From positions 12,608-76,607 of the forward strand of contig JBGVNN010000024.1 of assembly GCA_045125595.1 (NCBI GenBank): 64,000 nucleotides of DNA. The letters are read 5' to 3'. A model generated the notes under the pieces. It was not told where the DNA came from. It saw only the letters and a list, made by a program, of their open reading frames with translations, and did no database searches. The stretch is from Candidatus Egerieisoma sp. GTDB taxonomy: Bacteria > Bacillota > Clostridia > UBA1212 > UBA1255. The translations under genes and the position numbers were made by a program. Of this stretch, positions 11,293 through 30,990 are shown in pieces; positions within the stretch are counted from its first letter, which is position 1; the number at the start of each line of letters is the position of its first letter.

Positions 11293-11322
11293 TTGATACA
11301 AAGAGTCGGCATGTGGTACAAT
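11293..11322 (+). promoter_or_regulatory. Sigma-A-type promoter for the lipoprotein/kinase/PqqD/NTase cassette.
   Basis: TTGATA, an 18-nt spacer, then TACAAT. Confidence 0.4.
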
Positions 11323-11370: not shown

Positions 11371-11877
11371 ATGAAAAAGGCTTATTTATCTGTAATTTTA
11401 ATTTTTACTTTAATACTTATGTGTTTATGTCTGGCTTCTTGCGGAGAGGTTGAGGGAATAGAAATAACACGTGATGTTACACCTACAGCAAGAACACAAC
11501 CTGTATCTACGCCAACACCAACAACTGTTATTACTCCTACTGAGTATTTAGGTGATGAAAATGAAGTAGCTACATTTGATATTCAAGAAGACCCGACTAC
11601 AGCTCCTGCTACGGGAGGAAGCACAAATCAAACCAGTCAAACTACAGCAGGAACTACAATAAATCCCACAAATGGACAACAAACATCAAATCCTACTTCC
11701 GTACCGACAACGACTCCGACTCAGACTAACGGAGCCACATCATCGGCTACAGCGAATGTTACGAACACTCCTACAGCACCGACAACAGAGAATCCAACAA
11801 CAAGTCCTACAAGCACTCCTGCACAAACACCTTCAAAGAAGACTCCGATTCGTCTTCCTATTATTTGGTTTGACTGA
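11371..11877 (+). CDS. Lipoprotein with a long Thr/Pro/Ser/Asn-rich low-complexity region and a hydrophobic C-terminal tail (PIRLPIIWFD).
   Basis: RBS AAAGGAATGA. The N-terminus MKKAYLSVILIFTLILMCLCLASCGE carries a lipobox (LASC). The stop overlaps the next start (ATGA). Confidence 0.7.
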   Translation: MKKAYLSVILIFTLILMCLCLASCGEVEGIEITRDVTPTARTQPVSTPTPTTVITPTEYLGDENEVATFDIQEDPTTAPATGGSTNQTSQTTAGTTINPTNGQQTSNPTSVPTTTPTQTNGATSSATANVTNTPTAPTTENPTTSPTSTPAQTPSKKTPIRLPIIWFD

Positions 11878-12608
11878 TGAGCAGTATTTTTTGTAAGACA
11901 TACAAGTTTGCTCAAATTTCTGTTTTGGCTAAATATAATTATAAATATCTTGATAGTCAATGCAGGGACTACTTGACGGATGAAGAACCAAAAATAGAAA
12001 TTGAGGTTACACAAGAAGATATTGAAAAAGAAAAAGTTACAATATCTAAAGAAGAAGGTACTTTTTCGGATGGTTATTTAGAATCATTGGCTTTTTATCG
12101 TAAATTATGTGCAAGACTTGCTATCGAAGATATTATTCTTTTTCATGGCGCTGCGGTTGAAGTAAATGGTAAAGCATATTTGTTTACTGCGCCGTCAGGG
12201 ACGGGAAAGACTACTCATATATCTTTATGGGGTAAGATTCTCAAGGATAAGATGACAATAATTAACGGAGACAAACCTCTTTTAAAAGTGTCAGATAAAA
12301 TTATTGTTTACGGTACACCGTGGGACGGCAAAGAAAAACAGAGTACAAATACTTTTGCTGAATTGGGAGGTATTTGTATAATTAAAAGAGGAATAGAAAA
12401 TAAAATCAAACAAATTACAGCAAACGAAGCGTTGGGGACATTAATGTCACAGACTTATAGGCCTGTTCAAAAAGAAAATATGAAAAAAGTTCTTGAAAAT
12501 GTATTGTTGCTTTCTTCAAAAGTACCTCTGTGGCAGTTGGAATGCAACATTTCCGAAGAGGCGGCTTGGACATCGTATAACGCAATGTGTAAGGAGGAGT
12601 TTATTTGA
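11877..12608 (+). CDS. HprK-related P-loop kinase (HPr kinase C-terminal-domain-like).
   Basis: Walker A LFTAPSGTGKTTHISLWG, in the context HGAAVEVNGKAYLF. The start is coupled to the upstream stop (ATGA) and the stop to the downstream TTG start (TTGA). Confidence 0.6.
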   Translation: MSSIFCKTYKFAQISVLAKYNYKYLDSQCRDYLTDEEPKIEIEVTQEDIEKEKVTISKEEGTFSDGYLESLAFYRKLCARLAIEDIILFHGAAVEVNGKAYLFTAPSGTGKTTHISLWGKILKDKMTIINGDKPLLKVSDKIIVYGTPWDGKEKQSTNTFAELGGICIIKRGIENKIKQITANEALGTLMSQTYRPVQKENMKKVLENVLLLSSKVPLWQLECNISEEAAWTSYNAMCKEEFI

Positions 12609-12859
12609 AACTTAAAGATGTAATTATCAGTGAAGCTAATGGAGAATATGTAGCAGTAAATATGGGTGGCTCGTTTAACGGCATGATAAAACTTAATGAA
12701 ACTGCTGCTTTTATTGCTGAAGCAATGCAAGAAGATACAACTGTTGAAGAAATTGCAAAAAAGCTTTGTGCTGAGTACGAAATCGATGAGGCTACTGCTG
12801 TGCAAAGTATTGAGGCGGTAGTAGAAAAACTTCGCGAAATAGGATTTATTGAGGAATGA
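12605..12859 (+). CDS. PqqD-family protein (RiPP precursor recognition element-like), 84 aa.
   Basis: Sequence VAVNMGGSF..IKLNETAAFIAEAMQEDTTVEEIAKKLCAEYEIDEATAVQSIEAVVEKLREIGFIEE resembles the PqqD/RRE family. RBS AAGGAGGAG precedes the TTG start. Confidence 0.65.
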   Translation: MKLKDVIISEANGEYVAVNMGGSFNGMIKLNETAAFIAEAMQEDTTVEEIAKKLCAEYEIDEATAVQSIEAVVEKLREIGFIEE

Positions 12860-14406
12860 GAGAAGCTGTATCAATAAAACAAGCACTTGAAAAAAACGGT
12901 TTTGTAATTCATAAAATTAAGGGTGGCAGTATGCTTCCTTTGCTTGATGAAGAAACTGATTTGGTCAGGCTTGAGGCTGTTGCTTGTAAAGACAAATTGA
13001 AAAAATATGATGTGCCGCTTTTTGTGAATGAAAGTAATGGCATGTTGATTCTCCATAGAATTATTGATGTTAAAAAGAATCATTACATCACATATGGGGA
13101 TAATTGCAAGCATTATGAAATTGTGCCTTTTGATACAGTTTTAGCTGTTGCTACAGGTTTTTATATAAAAGGAAAGTTTGTTTCCTGTAACGATCCGGAG
13201 TATTTGAAATATGTAGAAGAAAGATGTTCTTCTATAAAAAAACGCAAACTTTACCCGTTAAAAAGAAAACTTGCACCGGAGACAAAGGTGTTAGTTAAAT
13301 TATTCGTTGAAGCAGTCAAAAATGACGGCGTATCAATGAATGTTGAAAATGAGATTTCCGCACAATTCAATTGGCAAAAATTATTTGCGGAGGCAAAACG
13401 CCACAATATTGGGGCGATGCTGTATCCTTATGCCAAAAAAGCCGGCTGTCCGGAGCCTTTAATATCTGCGTGGAGTCAAATCGCTGATAAAGCATTGAGA
13501 AAAGAGCTTTTGTTTAATGCAGAAAGAAGCGCAATTATAAGTGAATTTGAAAAAGCCGGCATAAAATACATACCGCTTAAAGGAATAATAATTAAAGATT
13601 ATTATCCGAGAAAAGGTATGAGAGAATTTACGGATAACGATATGCTGTTAGAGGAAAAGTCGATCCCTGCAGCTACTCAAATAATGGAAAAAAGAGGATA
13701 CAGAAGTAATATAAATGAAGATTACACTGATTGTCCTTTTTATAAAGAGCCTATATTTAATTTCGAGTTGCACAGAGCGCTTTTTGCAAAAAATGTGCCG
13801 ATTGCCAAGTATTTCAAAGACCCGTGGAAAAAGGCTGTAAAAGATAACGATAGTAATTTTGGTTATCATATGACAAATGAGGATTTTTATATCCACGTTA
13901 TTACACACTTTTATAAACATTATGCAATCAGCAGAGGTGCGGGACTGAAATTTTTTGCTGATTTCCATTATTTACAAATAGGTTTGATTGACAGCCAAAA
14001 AGTTGATATAAATTATATAAAAAGAGAGTTTTCGAAATTAGGCATATTAGAATTTTATGAAAAAACTGTTGAAATGACAGAACGTCTGTTTAAAGGAGAC
14101 GAGACACTATTTACAAACGAAATGCTTCACTATGTTCTCTCGAGCGGAGCTTACGGCAATAAATCACAGGCAATTGCCAATAATATTAAAAACAATGGTA
14201 AATTTAAGTTTTGGTTTTCAAGACTTTTCCCAACGAAGGGATATATGGTAAAGGTTTTTCCTGTAATAAGAAAAGCCCCCGTGCTGTTGCCCTTTTTATG
14301 GATTGTGCGCCTCGTAAGAGCGCCGTTTACTAAATCGGGACGTGAAACATTTACACGGGAGCATAATATCTCAAAACATATTGATATATCTTCTGATAAA
14401 GATTAA
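12856..14406 (+). CDS. Fusion protein: N-terminal S24/S26-type (SipW/Sec11-like) peptidase domain plus a C-terminal uncharacterised polymerase-beta-superfamily nucleotidyltransferase (NTP_transf_5-like).
   Basis: KGGSMLPLL and LILHRII form the peptidase signature, with His in place of the SPase-I Lys. IPLKGIIIKDYYPRKGMREFTDNDMLL fits the hG..x(n)..DxD NTase motif. The start is coupled to the PqqD stop (ATGA). Confidence 0.6.
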   Translation: MREAVSIKQALEKNGFVIHKIKGGSMLPLLDEETDLVRLEAVACKDKLKKYDVPLFVNESNGMLILHRIIDVKKNHYITYGDNCKHYEIVPFDTVLAVATGFYIKGKFVSCNDPEYLKYVEERCSSIKKRKLYPLKRKLAPETKVLVKLFVEAVKNDGVSMNVENEISAQFNWQKLFAEAKRHNIGAMLYPYAKKAGCPEPLISAWSQIADKALRKELLFNAERSAIISEFEKAGIKYIPLKGIIIKDYYPRKGMREFTDNDMLLEEKSIPAATQIMEKRGYRSNINEDYTDCPFYKEPIFNFELHRALFAKNVPIAKYFKDPWKKAVKDNDSNFGYHMTNEDFYIHVITHFYKHYAISRGAGLKFFADFHYLQIGLIDSQKVDINYIKREFSKLGILEFYEKTVEMTERLFKGDETLFTNEMLHYVLSSGAYGNKSQAIANNIKNNGKFKFWFSRLFPTKGYMVKVFPVIRKAPVLLPFLWIVRLVRAPFTKSGRETFTREHNISKHIDISSDKD

Positions 14407-15511: not shown

Positions 15512-16219
15512 TTATTTCCAATATTGAGAGGGGTCTAAAGGCTCGTTATTTTCCGTAAGTTCAAAGTGAAGATGTGCACCCTGTGCCTTTTCGCAGAAAA
15601 TATCGTCACCCAAAGTACCTATCACAGCACCTGCTTCAACTTTGTTGCCCGCAAGTAACCCGTCTGCCGTTTTGGCAAGTCCGCAATAAACAGTTGAGAA
15701 TCGTCTGCCGCTGACATCGTGCTCCATTACGACAGTGAGTCCGTATCTCGGGTCTGACTTTACTGCGGAAATTTTTCCGGTCGCCGCTGCTTTCACGGGA
15801 TTTCCGGAAGTACCTGCAATGTCAATGCCGGAATGTGTTCGCCATTCTTGTAAAGTGGAGTTGTATACAAGTTTTTTTGCAGCAAATTCAGATTGAATTT
15901 CGCCATCAACAGGCTTAATAATTGATATTTGACCCGGTTTTTGCTGATTTGAGCTTGGAGGATTATTGTTTTGAGAATCATCCACAGGTCTTGACGCGGA
16001 GGTGGATTGCGGTGGCTTAGTGTTGTCTGTTTTGTCGGGCGAATTTGTGGGAGAGACAGGTTTTGAAACCGATGTAGAATAAGAAATTACAGGTTCTTTA
16101 GGAGAATTGTTTCCCGTGTTTATTACGGAAATGCCTGCGACAATAACAGCTACAAGACAAACAAAAGCGATAATAATATACCCTTTGTTTTTTAAAAACT
16201 TAACAACAGTATCTTTCAT
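15512..16219 (-). CDS. Membrane-anchored M23-family metallopeptidase.
   Basis: HSGIDIA..., GLTVVMEHDV and HLHFEL motifs. An N-terminal TM segment and a Pro/Ser-rich linker are present. Confidence 0.75.
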   Translation of the reverse strand: MKDTVVKFLKNKGYIIIAFVCLVAVIVAGISVINTGNNSPKEPVISYSTSVSKPVSPTNSPDKTDNTKPPQSTSASRPVDDSQNNNPPSSNQQKPGQISIIKPVDGEIQSEFAAKKLVYNSTLQEWRTHSGIDIAGTSGNPVKAAATGKISAVKSDPRYGLTVVMEHDVSGRRFSTVYCGLAKTADGLLAGNKVEAGAVIGTLGDDIFCEKAQGAHLHFELTENNEPLDPSQYWK

Positions 16220-30804: not shown

Positions 30805-30829
30805 TTAGATTCGGTTTAAAACAATAAAA

Positions 30830-30990
30830 ACAGAATAATTTCGCCGAAGACAGCAGGCATCGTTAGTACGTATAAGTCCGGCCGAGGTTAACTGATTTTA
30901 TAATCACAACCCTTTTGTGTCTTTGGCATGAAAGGGTTTTCTGATTTTTATACAATGATGGGACAATTTTACAAGGAGGTGTTTGTAAGG
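30830..30990 (+). promoter_or_regulatory. rplJ (L10) leader, the probable L10(L12)4 autoregulatory region.
   Basis: A ~185-nt structured intergenic region upstream of rplJ holds a hairpin (cacaaccctttt..aaagggttttctg). Confidence 0.4.

Follow-up and report, generated by a model that had tools for sequence, protein, structure and literature searches.

Gene clusters of the linear polyphosphorylated peptide (LPP) kind, which belong to the ribosome-made peptides that are modified after translation (RiPPs), were described only in 2026 and have been studied in Bacilli alone. They encode a signal peptidase I (SpI)-like peptidase, LppS, a RiPP recognition element (RRE), LppB, an HprK-like kinase, LppK, a nucleoside triphosphate (NTP) transferase, LppN, and an exporter, LppD (Popov et al., Nat Commun 2026, PMC13381572). 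The precursors span 35-200 amino acids (aa) and carry the leader YxxPxVLxHQxIxFET. D70 of LppB hydrogen-bonds the leader tyrosine, LppS cuts after T-1 in a reaction that requires LppB and depends on F-3, E-2, and T-1, and LppK polyphosphorylates a single core serine, Ser3, adjacent to where the leader is cut, and rejects threonine (PMC13381572). A sandwich of MBP-LppA-TrxA is still bound and cleaved (PMC13381572). Clostridial SpI proteins are listed solely in unstudied network clusters, and the main text of that paper makes no mention of lipoprotein, lipobox, membrane, or any word beginning with Clostridi (PMC13381572). Here we analyze a 64,000-nucleotide stretch of DNA from Candidatus Egerieisoma sp. 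(contig JBGVNN010000024.1 of assembly GCA_045125595.1; hereafter the window), in which a gene for a Thr/Pro-rich lipoprotein (window positions 11371-11877) opens a cassette of four genes, each overlapping the next at the stop and start codons. The window reveals an extensive branch of the LPP kind in Clostridia. We propose, with moderate confidence, that the lipoprotein is lipid-anchored and disordered, that it serves a clostridial LPP-like RiPP cassette of four genes as its precursor-type substrate (the 'A' gene), and that its Thr/Pro stretch is a spacer.

Other known systems share parts of this arrangement. In lasso peptide tailoring, HprK homologs (PadeK and PsmK) phosphorylate a precursor serine, and in some cases transferase and leader peptidase form one fusion protein (PMC8498205, PMC6993621). 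In pseudomycoidin, an NTP_transf-type enzyme adds hexoses to the phosphoserine (PMC6993621). The paeninodin and pseudomycoidin pathways resemble the window cassette in the types of kinase and transferase and in the lasso leader logic ([Y/W]xxPxL), and the PqqD protein of the window matches lasso B1 structures. They differ in that the window encodes neither a cyclase (C) nor a B2 cysteine protease, and in that the lasso-modified residue is a C-terminal serine, whereas the tails described here do not end in serine. A lasso cluster was rejected because no open reading frame (ORF) with an SGGxDS PP-loop occurs in the 64-kb window; across 87 loci, neither a lasso cyclase nor a transglutaminase-like B2 protease figured in the conserved gene families. 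Bufferins are MNIO-modified RiPPs with a Sec signal that undergo modification in the cytoplasm before the general pathway exports them (PMC11626156). Like the window lipoprotein, their precursors are small, carry an N-terminal Sec signal, and have no dedicated pump. However, the enzymes and chemistry are different, the signal peptides are type I and lack a lipobox, and the products are folded and Cys-rich rather than disordered tethers. PapR of Bacillus cereus, a peptide of the RRNPP type, is made with a Sec signal peptide, and its active part is a short hydrophobic peptide at the C-terminus, ADLPFEF. PapR differs from the present case in that it requires no kinase, PqqD, or peptidase cassette.

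The enzymes of the window cassette resemble those of LPP clusters. All features of the lipoprotein gene and cassette described below lie on the forward strand. The P-loop kinase-like protein (11877-12608) carries a Walker A motif (APSGTGKTTH). Its AlphaFold2 model (predicted local distance difference test [pLDDT] 93.5) matched ATP-PEPCK (5e-7) and HprK/P (1kkl, 4.5e-6) in Foldseek, with values ranging from 5e-7 to 1e-5. By its PEPCK/HprK fold and Walker A motif only, we take it to be a kinase and, at fold level, the probable counterpart of LppK. Its homologs in public data fall into 2,496 clusters, mostly from gut and rumen metagenome-assembled genomes, and the precomputed Pfam label PF27840 'ScmC' covers the entire kinase family. 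The NCBIfam models HprK_rel_A (TIGR04352) and ScmC (TIGR04249) aligned to the P-loop only (~30 residues), scoring 15.6 and 18.3 bits where the cut-offs stand at 200 and 125. There was no full-length NCBIfam match above cut-off that would place the kinase in an HPr-rel-A system or a SynChlorMet cassette. Searches of PDB sequences with the kinase and with the peptidase-transferase fusion returned nothing useful.

The second enzyme gene (12605-12859) encodes a PqqD-family RRE (PF05402, 7.5e-19), the likely counterpart of LppB and of lasso B1 proteins. Its PDB matches were TfuB1 (1.2e-5) and PbaB1 (2e-3), and LppB (9x8z) was not among them; it is 35% identical to an LPP RRE over 48 aa (E 9e-9). 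The fourth gene of the cassette begins with a SipW/archaeal-type signal peptidase-like domain without a membrane segment (12856-13275; TIGR02228, 4.7e-8, below cut-off; maximum hydropathy 1.42), the likely counterpart of LppS. The G..SM.P, LHR, and GDN motifs of this domain show at least 90% conservation across 96 sequences. The domain is 38% identical to an LPP SpI of sequence similarity network cluster 1 (E 1e-10) and matches a Ruminococcus SpI with E 6e-14. Fused to it as the C-terminal domain is an NTP_transf_5 nucleotidyltransferase (13363-14091; PF14907, 3.4e-41), the likely counterpart of LppN and PsmN. The preliminary description had placed the lipoprotein next to a kinase and nucleotidyltransferase. 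The kinase, identified at fold level, does adjoin it, but the transferase lies in the fourth gene with the PqqD gene between. No transmembrane-like stretch or signal peptide was found in the three enzymes.

The fusion ends in a conserved amphipathic segment, ..KAPVLLPFLWIVRLV.. (aa 438-514; 14167-14397), which is kept where the transferase domain is not. In three relatives (L081/82, L085/86, and L002; loci are designated by L numbers), the fourth gene lacks residues ~141 to 437, the entire transferase catalytic domain, and the lipoprotein, the peptidase domain, and the C-terminal amphipathic segment are all retained. The segment has a hydropathy peak of 1.42 and is 53% identical to the C-terminus of the 222-aa L081 protein. 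As a side observation, a V-L-L-P-F-L-W-I stretch within it (..KAPVLLPFLWIVRLVRAPF..) resembles I-R-L-P-I-I-W-F of the lipoprotein tail; the segment might act as a pseudo-substrate or associate with membranes as a helix, or the likeness might be due to chance.

The window cassette thus has an HprK-like kinase, a discrete PqqD RRE, a SipW/archaeal-type peptidase of the Ser/His/Asp type, and an NTP transferase, and it has no macrolactam cyclase, all as in LPP clusters; its peptidase domain and PqqD protein are homologous to proteins in the supplement of PMC13381572. It differs from them in several respects. No MsbA-like exporter is present in or adjoining the operon, and no precursor with an N-terminal YxxPx[VL]...FET leader occurs in the window. 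Peptidase and transferase form a single fusion protein, and relatives can do without the transferase. The candidate precursor has a lipoprotein signal and a conserved C-terminal tail, unlike LPP precursors, whose C-termini are highly variable, and the window RRE lacks the Tyr-binding Asp. Judged by homology, the cassette is a clostridial relative of the LPP kind that departs from it in exporter and canonical leader. In the literature searched, an anchored precursor-like protein beside an LPP-type cassette has not been described. PADLOC gave no defense-system match.

The lipoprotein gene encodes 168 aa, beginning MKKAYLSVILIFTLILMCLCLASC and finishing KKTPIRLPIIWFD, and sequence and synteny led us to propose its product as the anchored precursor-type partner of the cassette. 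Because its position and architecture are kept in 9 related sequences, this ORF is a real gene and not a chance ORF. From ATG 11371, the N-terminus reads MKK followed by an 18-residue hydrophobic core and L-A-S-C24. The predicted signal peptide with its lipobox (11371-11442) has a Kyte-Doolittle hydropathy of 2.75 over 19 residues, is helical in the AlphaFold2 model, and ends at an invariant Cys24. The product therefore appears to carry the basic n-region, h-region, lipobox of the form [LVI][ASTVI][GAS]C, and kept Cys of a bacterial lipoprotein of the Lgt/Lsp type; a strict PROSITE-style lipobox pattern fails at position -4 (Cys) alone. ATG 11371 is the credible start. We preferred it over the in-frame ATG 11272 because a promoter-like site, TTGATA-18-TACAAT with TG (11293-11322), about 50 nt 5' of the lipoprotein start, falls between the two. 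This site is a consensus match only, and with 13 promoter-like sites found versus 15.7 expected in shuffles, its value is positional.

The mature lipoprotein has 144 aa, including 41 Thr, 10 Ser, and 19 Pro (51 Ser/Thr), and is 73% T/P/S/N/Q/A/G. Its T/P/S/N/Q-rich spacer (aa 72-155; 11584-11835) holds 38 Ser/Thr, 12 Pro, and 3 hydrophobic residues in 84, and no DNA tandem repeat underlies it in the window. AlphaFold2 predicted a single helix (residues 3-24) and coil elsewhere (pLDDT 36-60), consistent with a disordered mature protein, although the model is a weak proxy for disorder because its alignment held 2 sequences only. Sequence, composition, and the invariant Cys24 agree with the preliminary description of a LASC lipobox followed by a low-complexity T/P-rich mature part, and the short hydrophobic and basic C-terminal tail is present as described. 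No family was assigned to the lipoprotein by Pfam, NCBIfam, or PADLOC, and Rfam gave no match near the gene.

The TGA stop of the lipoprotein gene (11875-11877) and the ATG of the kinase gene (11877-12608) have one base in common (TGATG). The stop/start overlap described earlier thus exists in the window, but the overlap is not kept in relatives, where the gap between the two genes ranges from -4 to +31 nt; from these gaps, the linkage is always tight. Within the tail codons (11838-11857), a T-rich run follows a GC-containing hairpin of 6 bp. This hairpin could be an attenuator of read-through from the lipoprotein gene into the enzyme genes, but with 2 terminator-like sites found in the region versus 3.1 expected, it may also be due to chance.

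Sequence searches with the lipoprotein returned a single relative from 5.8 billion clusters and two real relatives from 1.84 billion representatives. Because such searches detect close relatives only, we located orthologs by synteny. The lipoprotein gene stands directly before the kinase gene in 9 of 9 related sequences that have upstream DNA. In the 8 relatives with a kinase gene on the contig, the kinase is 65-80% identical to that of the window, and relatives on longer contigs have the trpS...pheS synteny in common with the window. Alignment of ten lipoproteins revealed only six invariant residues: Cys24, Phe69, Pro150, Ile160, Leu162, and Pro163. A post-lipobox island, GEVEGIEITRDVTPT (11443-11487; V-E-G-[IV]-E-x-T...V-[ST]-P), is kept in 7 of the 10 orthologs, and its E31 is nearly invariant. 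The T/P-rich stretch varies from ~20 to ~110 residues within the clade, and in other clades the spacer is D/S/E-rich or E/A/P-rich. The alignment indicates that the lipoprotein is fast-evolving. Since conservation is limited to the lipid-attachment Cys, a small internal motif, and the short C-terminal tail, the tail and the F69 motif, and not the Thr/Pro-rich stretch, are likely the functional ends of the protein. A comparison of the C-terminal end with the T-rich region among homologs, proposed in the preliminary description, accordingly came out in favor of the tail: I-x-L-P is invariant, and the T-rich stretch varies.

We collected 170 related loci using the kinase as probe, and family-wide counts are over 171 loci. 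The conserved tail KKTPIRLPIIWFD (11836-11874; I160-x-L162-P163 invariant in the ten-way alignment) has counterparts throughout this collection. The loci together contain 1,290 ORFs of 90 aa or more; 26 of them have [ILVM]-x-L-P-x(1-9) at the C-terminus, and ~20 of these 26 are N-terminally anchored (by a lipobox or a transmembrane segment), highly polar, and located beside a cassette. The tail motif occurs on 24 of 32 anchored polar proteins versus ~5 of roughly 1,260 other ORFs, and of 25 anchored tail proteins, 17 terminate fewer than 160 nt 5' of the kinase gene on the same strand. Those beside the kinase are non-homologous and come from ~20 distinct loci with differing genomic surroundings. 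The consensus of the anchored-protein tails is G-x-I-E-L-P-F-I-P-A. No curated family matched the anchored proteins, the short motif x-I-E-L-P-F-I-P is itself in no curated family, and a profile of 21 tails run against a large database returned 3 fragments only, all from proteins already collected.

The same motif is the core of leader-bearing short precursors in L035, L057, L070, and L123 (AIDLPDDLF in L070, GGGAVDLPFEPV in L035, and GVINLPFVPVGK in L123). In L057, the tail of the lipoprotein and the core of the adjoining 44-aa leader peptide are identical at 13 of 18 positions (E 7e-9). In L016, L057, L070, and L123, anchored tail proteins are encoded in tandem with short precursors, and anchored proteins coexist with leader-bearing precursors in L016, L057, L070, L107, L123, and L158. 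Other tail types also occur in both anchored and short forms, as in DQYETPII of L047 versus LEQDETPIM of L071; another shared type comprises DSWED tails on anchored proteins and DPWEG cores in short ones. The preliminary description had offered, as an alternative, that the C-terminal tail is the recognised part of the lipoprotein. This alternative gains support from the invariance of I-x-L-P and from its recurrence both on non-homologous anchored proteins and as the core of short precursors. The tails and cores xIELPFIPA, AVDLPFEPV, and AIDLPDDLF may also resemble the PapR peptide ADLPFEF.

Two proteins with the opposite architecture were seen directly 5' of the kinase gene (L035:5271-5993 and L054:930-1889). 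Each combines a type I signal peptide with a C-terminal transmembrane anchor that has a KRKK stop-transfer sequence, and the L035 protein has an E-L-P-F-V-P motif at its mature N-terminus.

The conserved genes of the collected loci are those for the kinase, PqqD, an S26-like peptidase, and one or two NTP_transf_5 proteins. Fifty-six loci hold 85 short precursors, in which M(E/K)KY..PEMEIVEFETEDVITTS is followed by diverse cores. By their leaders, these clostridial precursors are clearly LppA-like (Y..P......FET), with a Tyr-to-Phe spacing 3 residues less than in LppA, and they had no match in Pfam, NCBIfam, or the searched literature. In ~1/8 of sampled loci, the protein in the precursor slot is membrane-anchored and disordered and has a conserved C-terminal motif. 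The window clade has no canonical leader peptide within 5-6 kb, and the anchored lipoprotein is its sole candidate substrate. Absence of the lipoprotein from homologous cassettes had been raised earlier as a point that would speak against the lipoprotein as a target of the enzymes. Most of the distant cassettes indeed lack it and have short leader peptides instead, but every close relative with upstream sequence has it. A missing exporter was considered as a mark of anchored versus leader-bearing loci and rejected, since exporters are rare in both; a fused ABC exporter lies within the flanks of 6 of 171 loci.

Some of the short precursors are arranged in tandem arrays of up to six LppA-like genes (L027:2329-3223, L117:4110-4852, L038, L106, L131, and L138-L146). 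Their leaders are near-identical (MEKY.KAQMEVIEFE.EDVITTS), and their cores are very diverse and include Cys-rich ones such as GCNGVNAGIGGWGCGTDDPSCSKYCWEFDVS. Precursors of ~120 aa were seen in Ruminococcus and Kandleria (L041:4796-5161, L045:1670-1996, L046:2510-2851, L099, L129, L135, and L159); they have a shortened leader without YxxP and ~95-aa cores that resemble folded proteins, and in the RREs of these loci Met or Phe replaces the Tyr-binding Asp. A small conserved ORF 5' of the kinase gene in Faecousia-type loci (L008:5700-6010, L009:5690-5995, and L013:5690-5995) was rejected as a candidate, the conserved element being promoter-like (TTGACG-17-TATACT).

The recognition element was compared with the leaders of its loci. 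Where the position equivalent to LppB D70 is Asp, the leaders carry Tyr (34 of 34 loci); where it is Ser, Met, Phe, Asn, or Ala, the leader has Phe or no aromatic residue. In the window PqqD protein, Ser68 replaces the Tyr-binding Asp, and the equivalent position is Ser or Gly in 9 of 9 loci of the window clade. As far as these alignments tell, the recognition element co-varies with the substrate, and the window clade has lost the Tyr-binding Asp.

We favor the lipoprotein as the substrate because it occupies the precursor slot 5' of the kinase gene and because its tail matches the cores of short precursors. By analogy with LPP, the PqqD element would present the lipoprotein to the enzymes before Sec export. 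An internal island around Phe69 (..V-x-T-F-D-I) may stand in for the F-E-T cleavage motif of the leader, the kinase would phosphorylate a nearby Ser or Thr, the nucleotidyltransferase, where present, may add to that phosphate, and the serine peptidase would cut the lipoprotein. The Thr/Pro stretch would be a length-variable spacer that keeps the tail off the membrane anchor and not a target. The final product could be lipid-tethered at the surface or cut free. The chemistry, cleavage site, and topology of processing are inferred throughout from the analogy. Precedents exist for two parts of this scheme: an internal leader works in MBP-LppA-TrxA, and bufferin precursors carry Sec signals.

The candidate for the degenerate leader and cleavage motif is the island Y59-A78, YLGDENEVATFDIQEDPTTA (11545-11604), which contains the invariant F69. 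Placed against the clostridial leader and junction YEAPEMEIVEFETEDVITTS, it needs no gaps; by eye, 6 of 20 residues are identical and a further 6 are similar, and F69 takes the place of LPP F-3. We treat a degenerate internal leader at Y59-A78 as a lead, not a result.

Several findings weigh against the lipoprotein as a substrate. In hhalign, the Y59-A78 island and the leader scored 10.5, a weak score that 8 of 300 column shuffles reached. A leader hidden Markov model (HMM) built from 21 short precursors found nothing above shuffles on 12 lipoproteins and had no match within the window. Because this model was null on the lipoproteins, the weak profile-profile score is all that speaks for an internal leader. 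In several other clades, the internal island resembles a second ELP-type (tail) motif and not a leader, and by its sequence the lipoprotein has no canonical leader. The tail holds no conserved Ser or Thr, while LppK is Ser-specific, and ~85% of related cassettes are without an anchored protein. Topology poses the greatest problem. By the positive-inside rule the tail should end up outside the cell, whereas the enzymes, having no signal peptide or membrane segment, should be cytoplasmic, so that modification would need to take place before export. Cutting in the cytoplasm after F-D-I would, in addition, part the tail from its export signal.

An alternative, which we think unlikely, is that the lipoprotein is an accessory surface protein. 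It would show the core motif of the product on the exterior of the cell, where it might offer a docking site, work as a decoy or immunity element, or pair as a receptor partner with the free peptides that come from the short precursors. Besides a tail predicted outside and enzymes inside, such a role would fit the lack of a significant leader, the coexistence with leader-bearing precursors in the loci named above, and the two or three ELP-type motifs that several anchored proteins carry, like a multivalent binding surface. However, the window clade and many other loci have no short precursor within 5-6 kb, yet they retain the kinase, PqqD, and an intact peptidase; with no short precursor nearby, these enzymes would lack an in-operon substrate if the lipoprotein were accessory. 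The gene also occupies the precursor slot, and the Tyr-binding residue of the RRE is changed specifically in the window clade. A Sec-exported pro-peptide, whose tail is freed by extracellular proteases as a PapR-like signal and on which the enzymes have no direct chemical role, would account for the combination of a signal peptide with a short conserved hydrophobic motif at the extreme C-terminus. We consider it improbable: the same motif is found behind cytoplasmic-type leaders that need PqqD and the peptidase, and the tight, recurrent linkage to the kinase would be left unexplained. No RRNPP-type receptor or Opp genes were noticed beside the cassette in a search that was not systematic, and the four-gene operon holds no TPR-type regulator.

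The preliminary description had favored the Thr/Ser-rich tether itself as the target, in the manner of a mucin, with many Thr and Ser O-phosphorylated, nucleotidylylated, or glycosylated by the kinase and nucleotidyltransferase. The 51 Ser/Thr among 144 mature residues, the predicted disorder of this region, and the related nucleotidyltransferase of pseudomycoidin, which adds hexoses to phosphoserine (PMC6993621), are compatible with that idea. The comparative evidence points the other way and makes it improbable. Both the length and the composition of the spacer are hypervariable, and in other clades it is acidic, not Thr-rich; the conserved positions fall outside it; LppK modifies one Ser and rejects Thr; and the three relatives that have lost the nucleotidyltransferase domain have retained the lipoprotein. 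It is very improbable, and was already disfavored, that the gene is an unrelated lipoprotein gene with no tie to the cassette beyond a common operon. Homology is detectable in close relatives only, and disordered lipoproteins are common in Firmicutes, but non-homologous anchored proteins with the same tail recur by the kinase in ~20 distinct loci, and that tail matches the cores of co-encoded precursors.

If the lipoprotein is a true substrate, as we propose, it would link RiPP enzymes to lipoprotein biogenesis and offer a naturally occurring example of a leader that is internal or degenerate, paired with an RRE whose Tyr-binding residue is altered. It would also hint at a function in cell-surface display, which would fit the reported association of LPP with capsule loci. 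A bolder version of this proposal, which we hold to be somewhat unlikely, is that the RiPP machinery (recognition element, kinase, and SipW-like protease, with or without a nucleotidyltransferase) acts on a Sec-exported lipoprotein, so that gut Clostridia display a polyphosphorylated, possibly glycosylated, short peptide on the tip of a long, flexible, lipid-anchored tether, with the same core made in tethered and free form by one enzyme set. RiPP chemistry would in that case be used for cell-surface decoration.

Other features of the window were recorded alongside the cassette. On the reverse strand at 15512-16219 lies a gene for an M23 peptidase (SpoIIQ-like, below cut-off) with an N-terminal membrane anchor and an S/P/T/N/Q-rich linker of its own; it is syntenic with the cassette in close relatives. 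Upstream, an 825-aa ORF (5136-7613) has the look of a fusion, its N-terminal part being sugar-phosphate-isomerase/TIM-barrel-like and another part acyl-CoA synthetase-like; in L040, a similar 841-aa ORF finishes exactly at the kinase start. Rfam identified a T-box leader (3441-3687; 123.9 bits) 5' of the ORF at 3716-5149 and a ribosomal protein L10 leader (30826-30951) 5' of the rplJ region.

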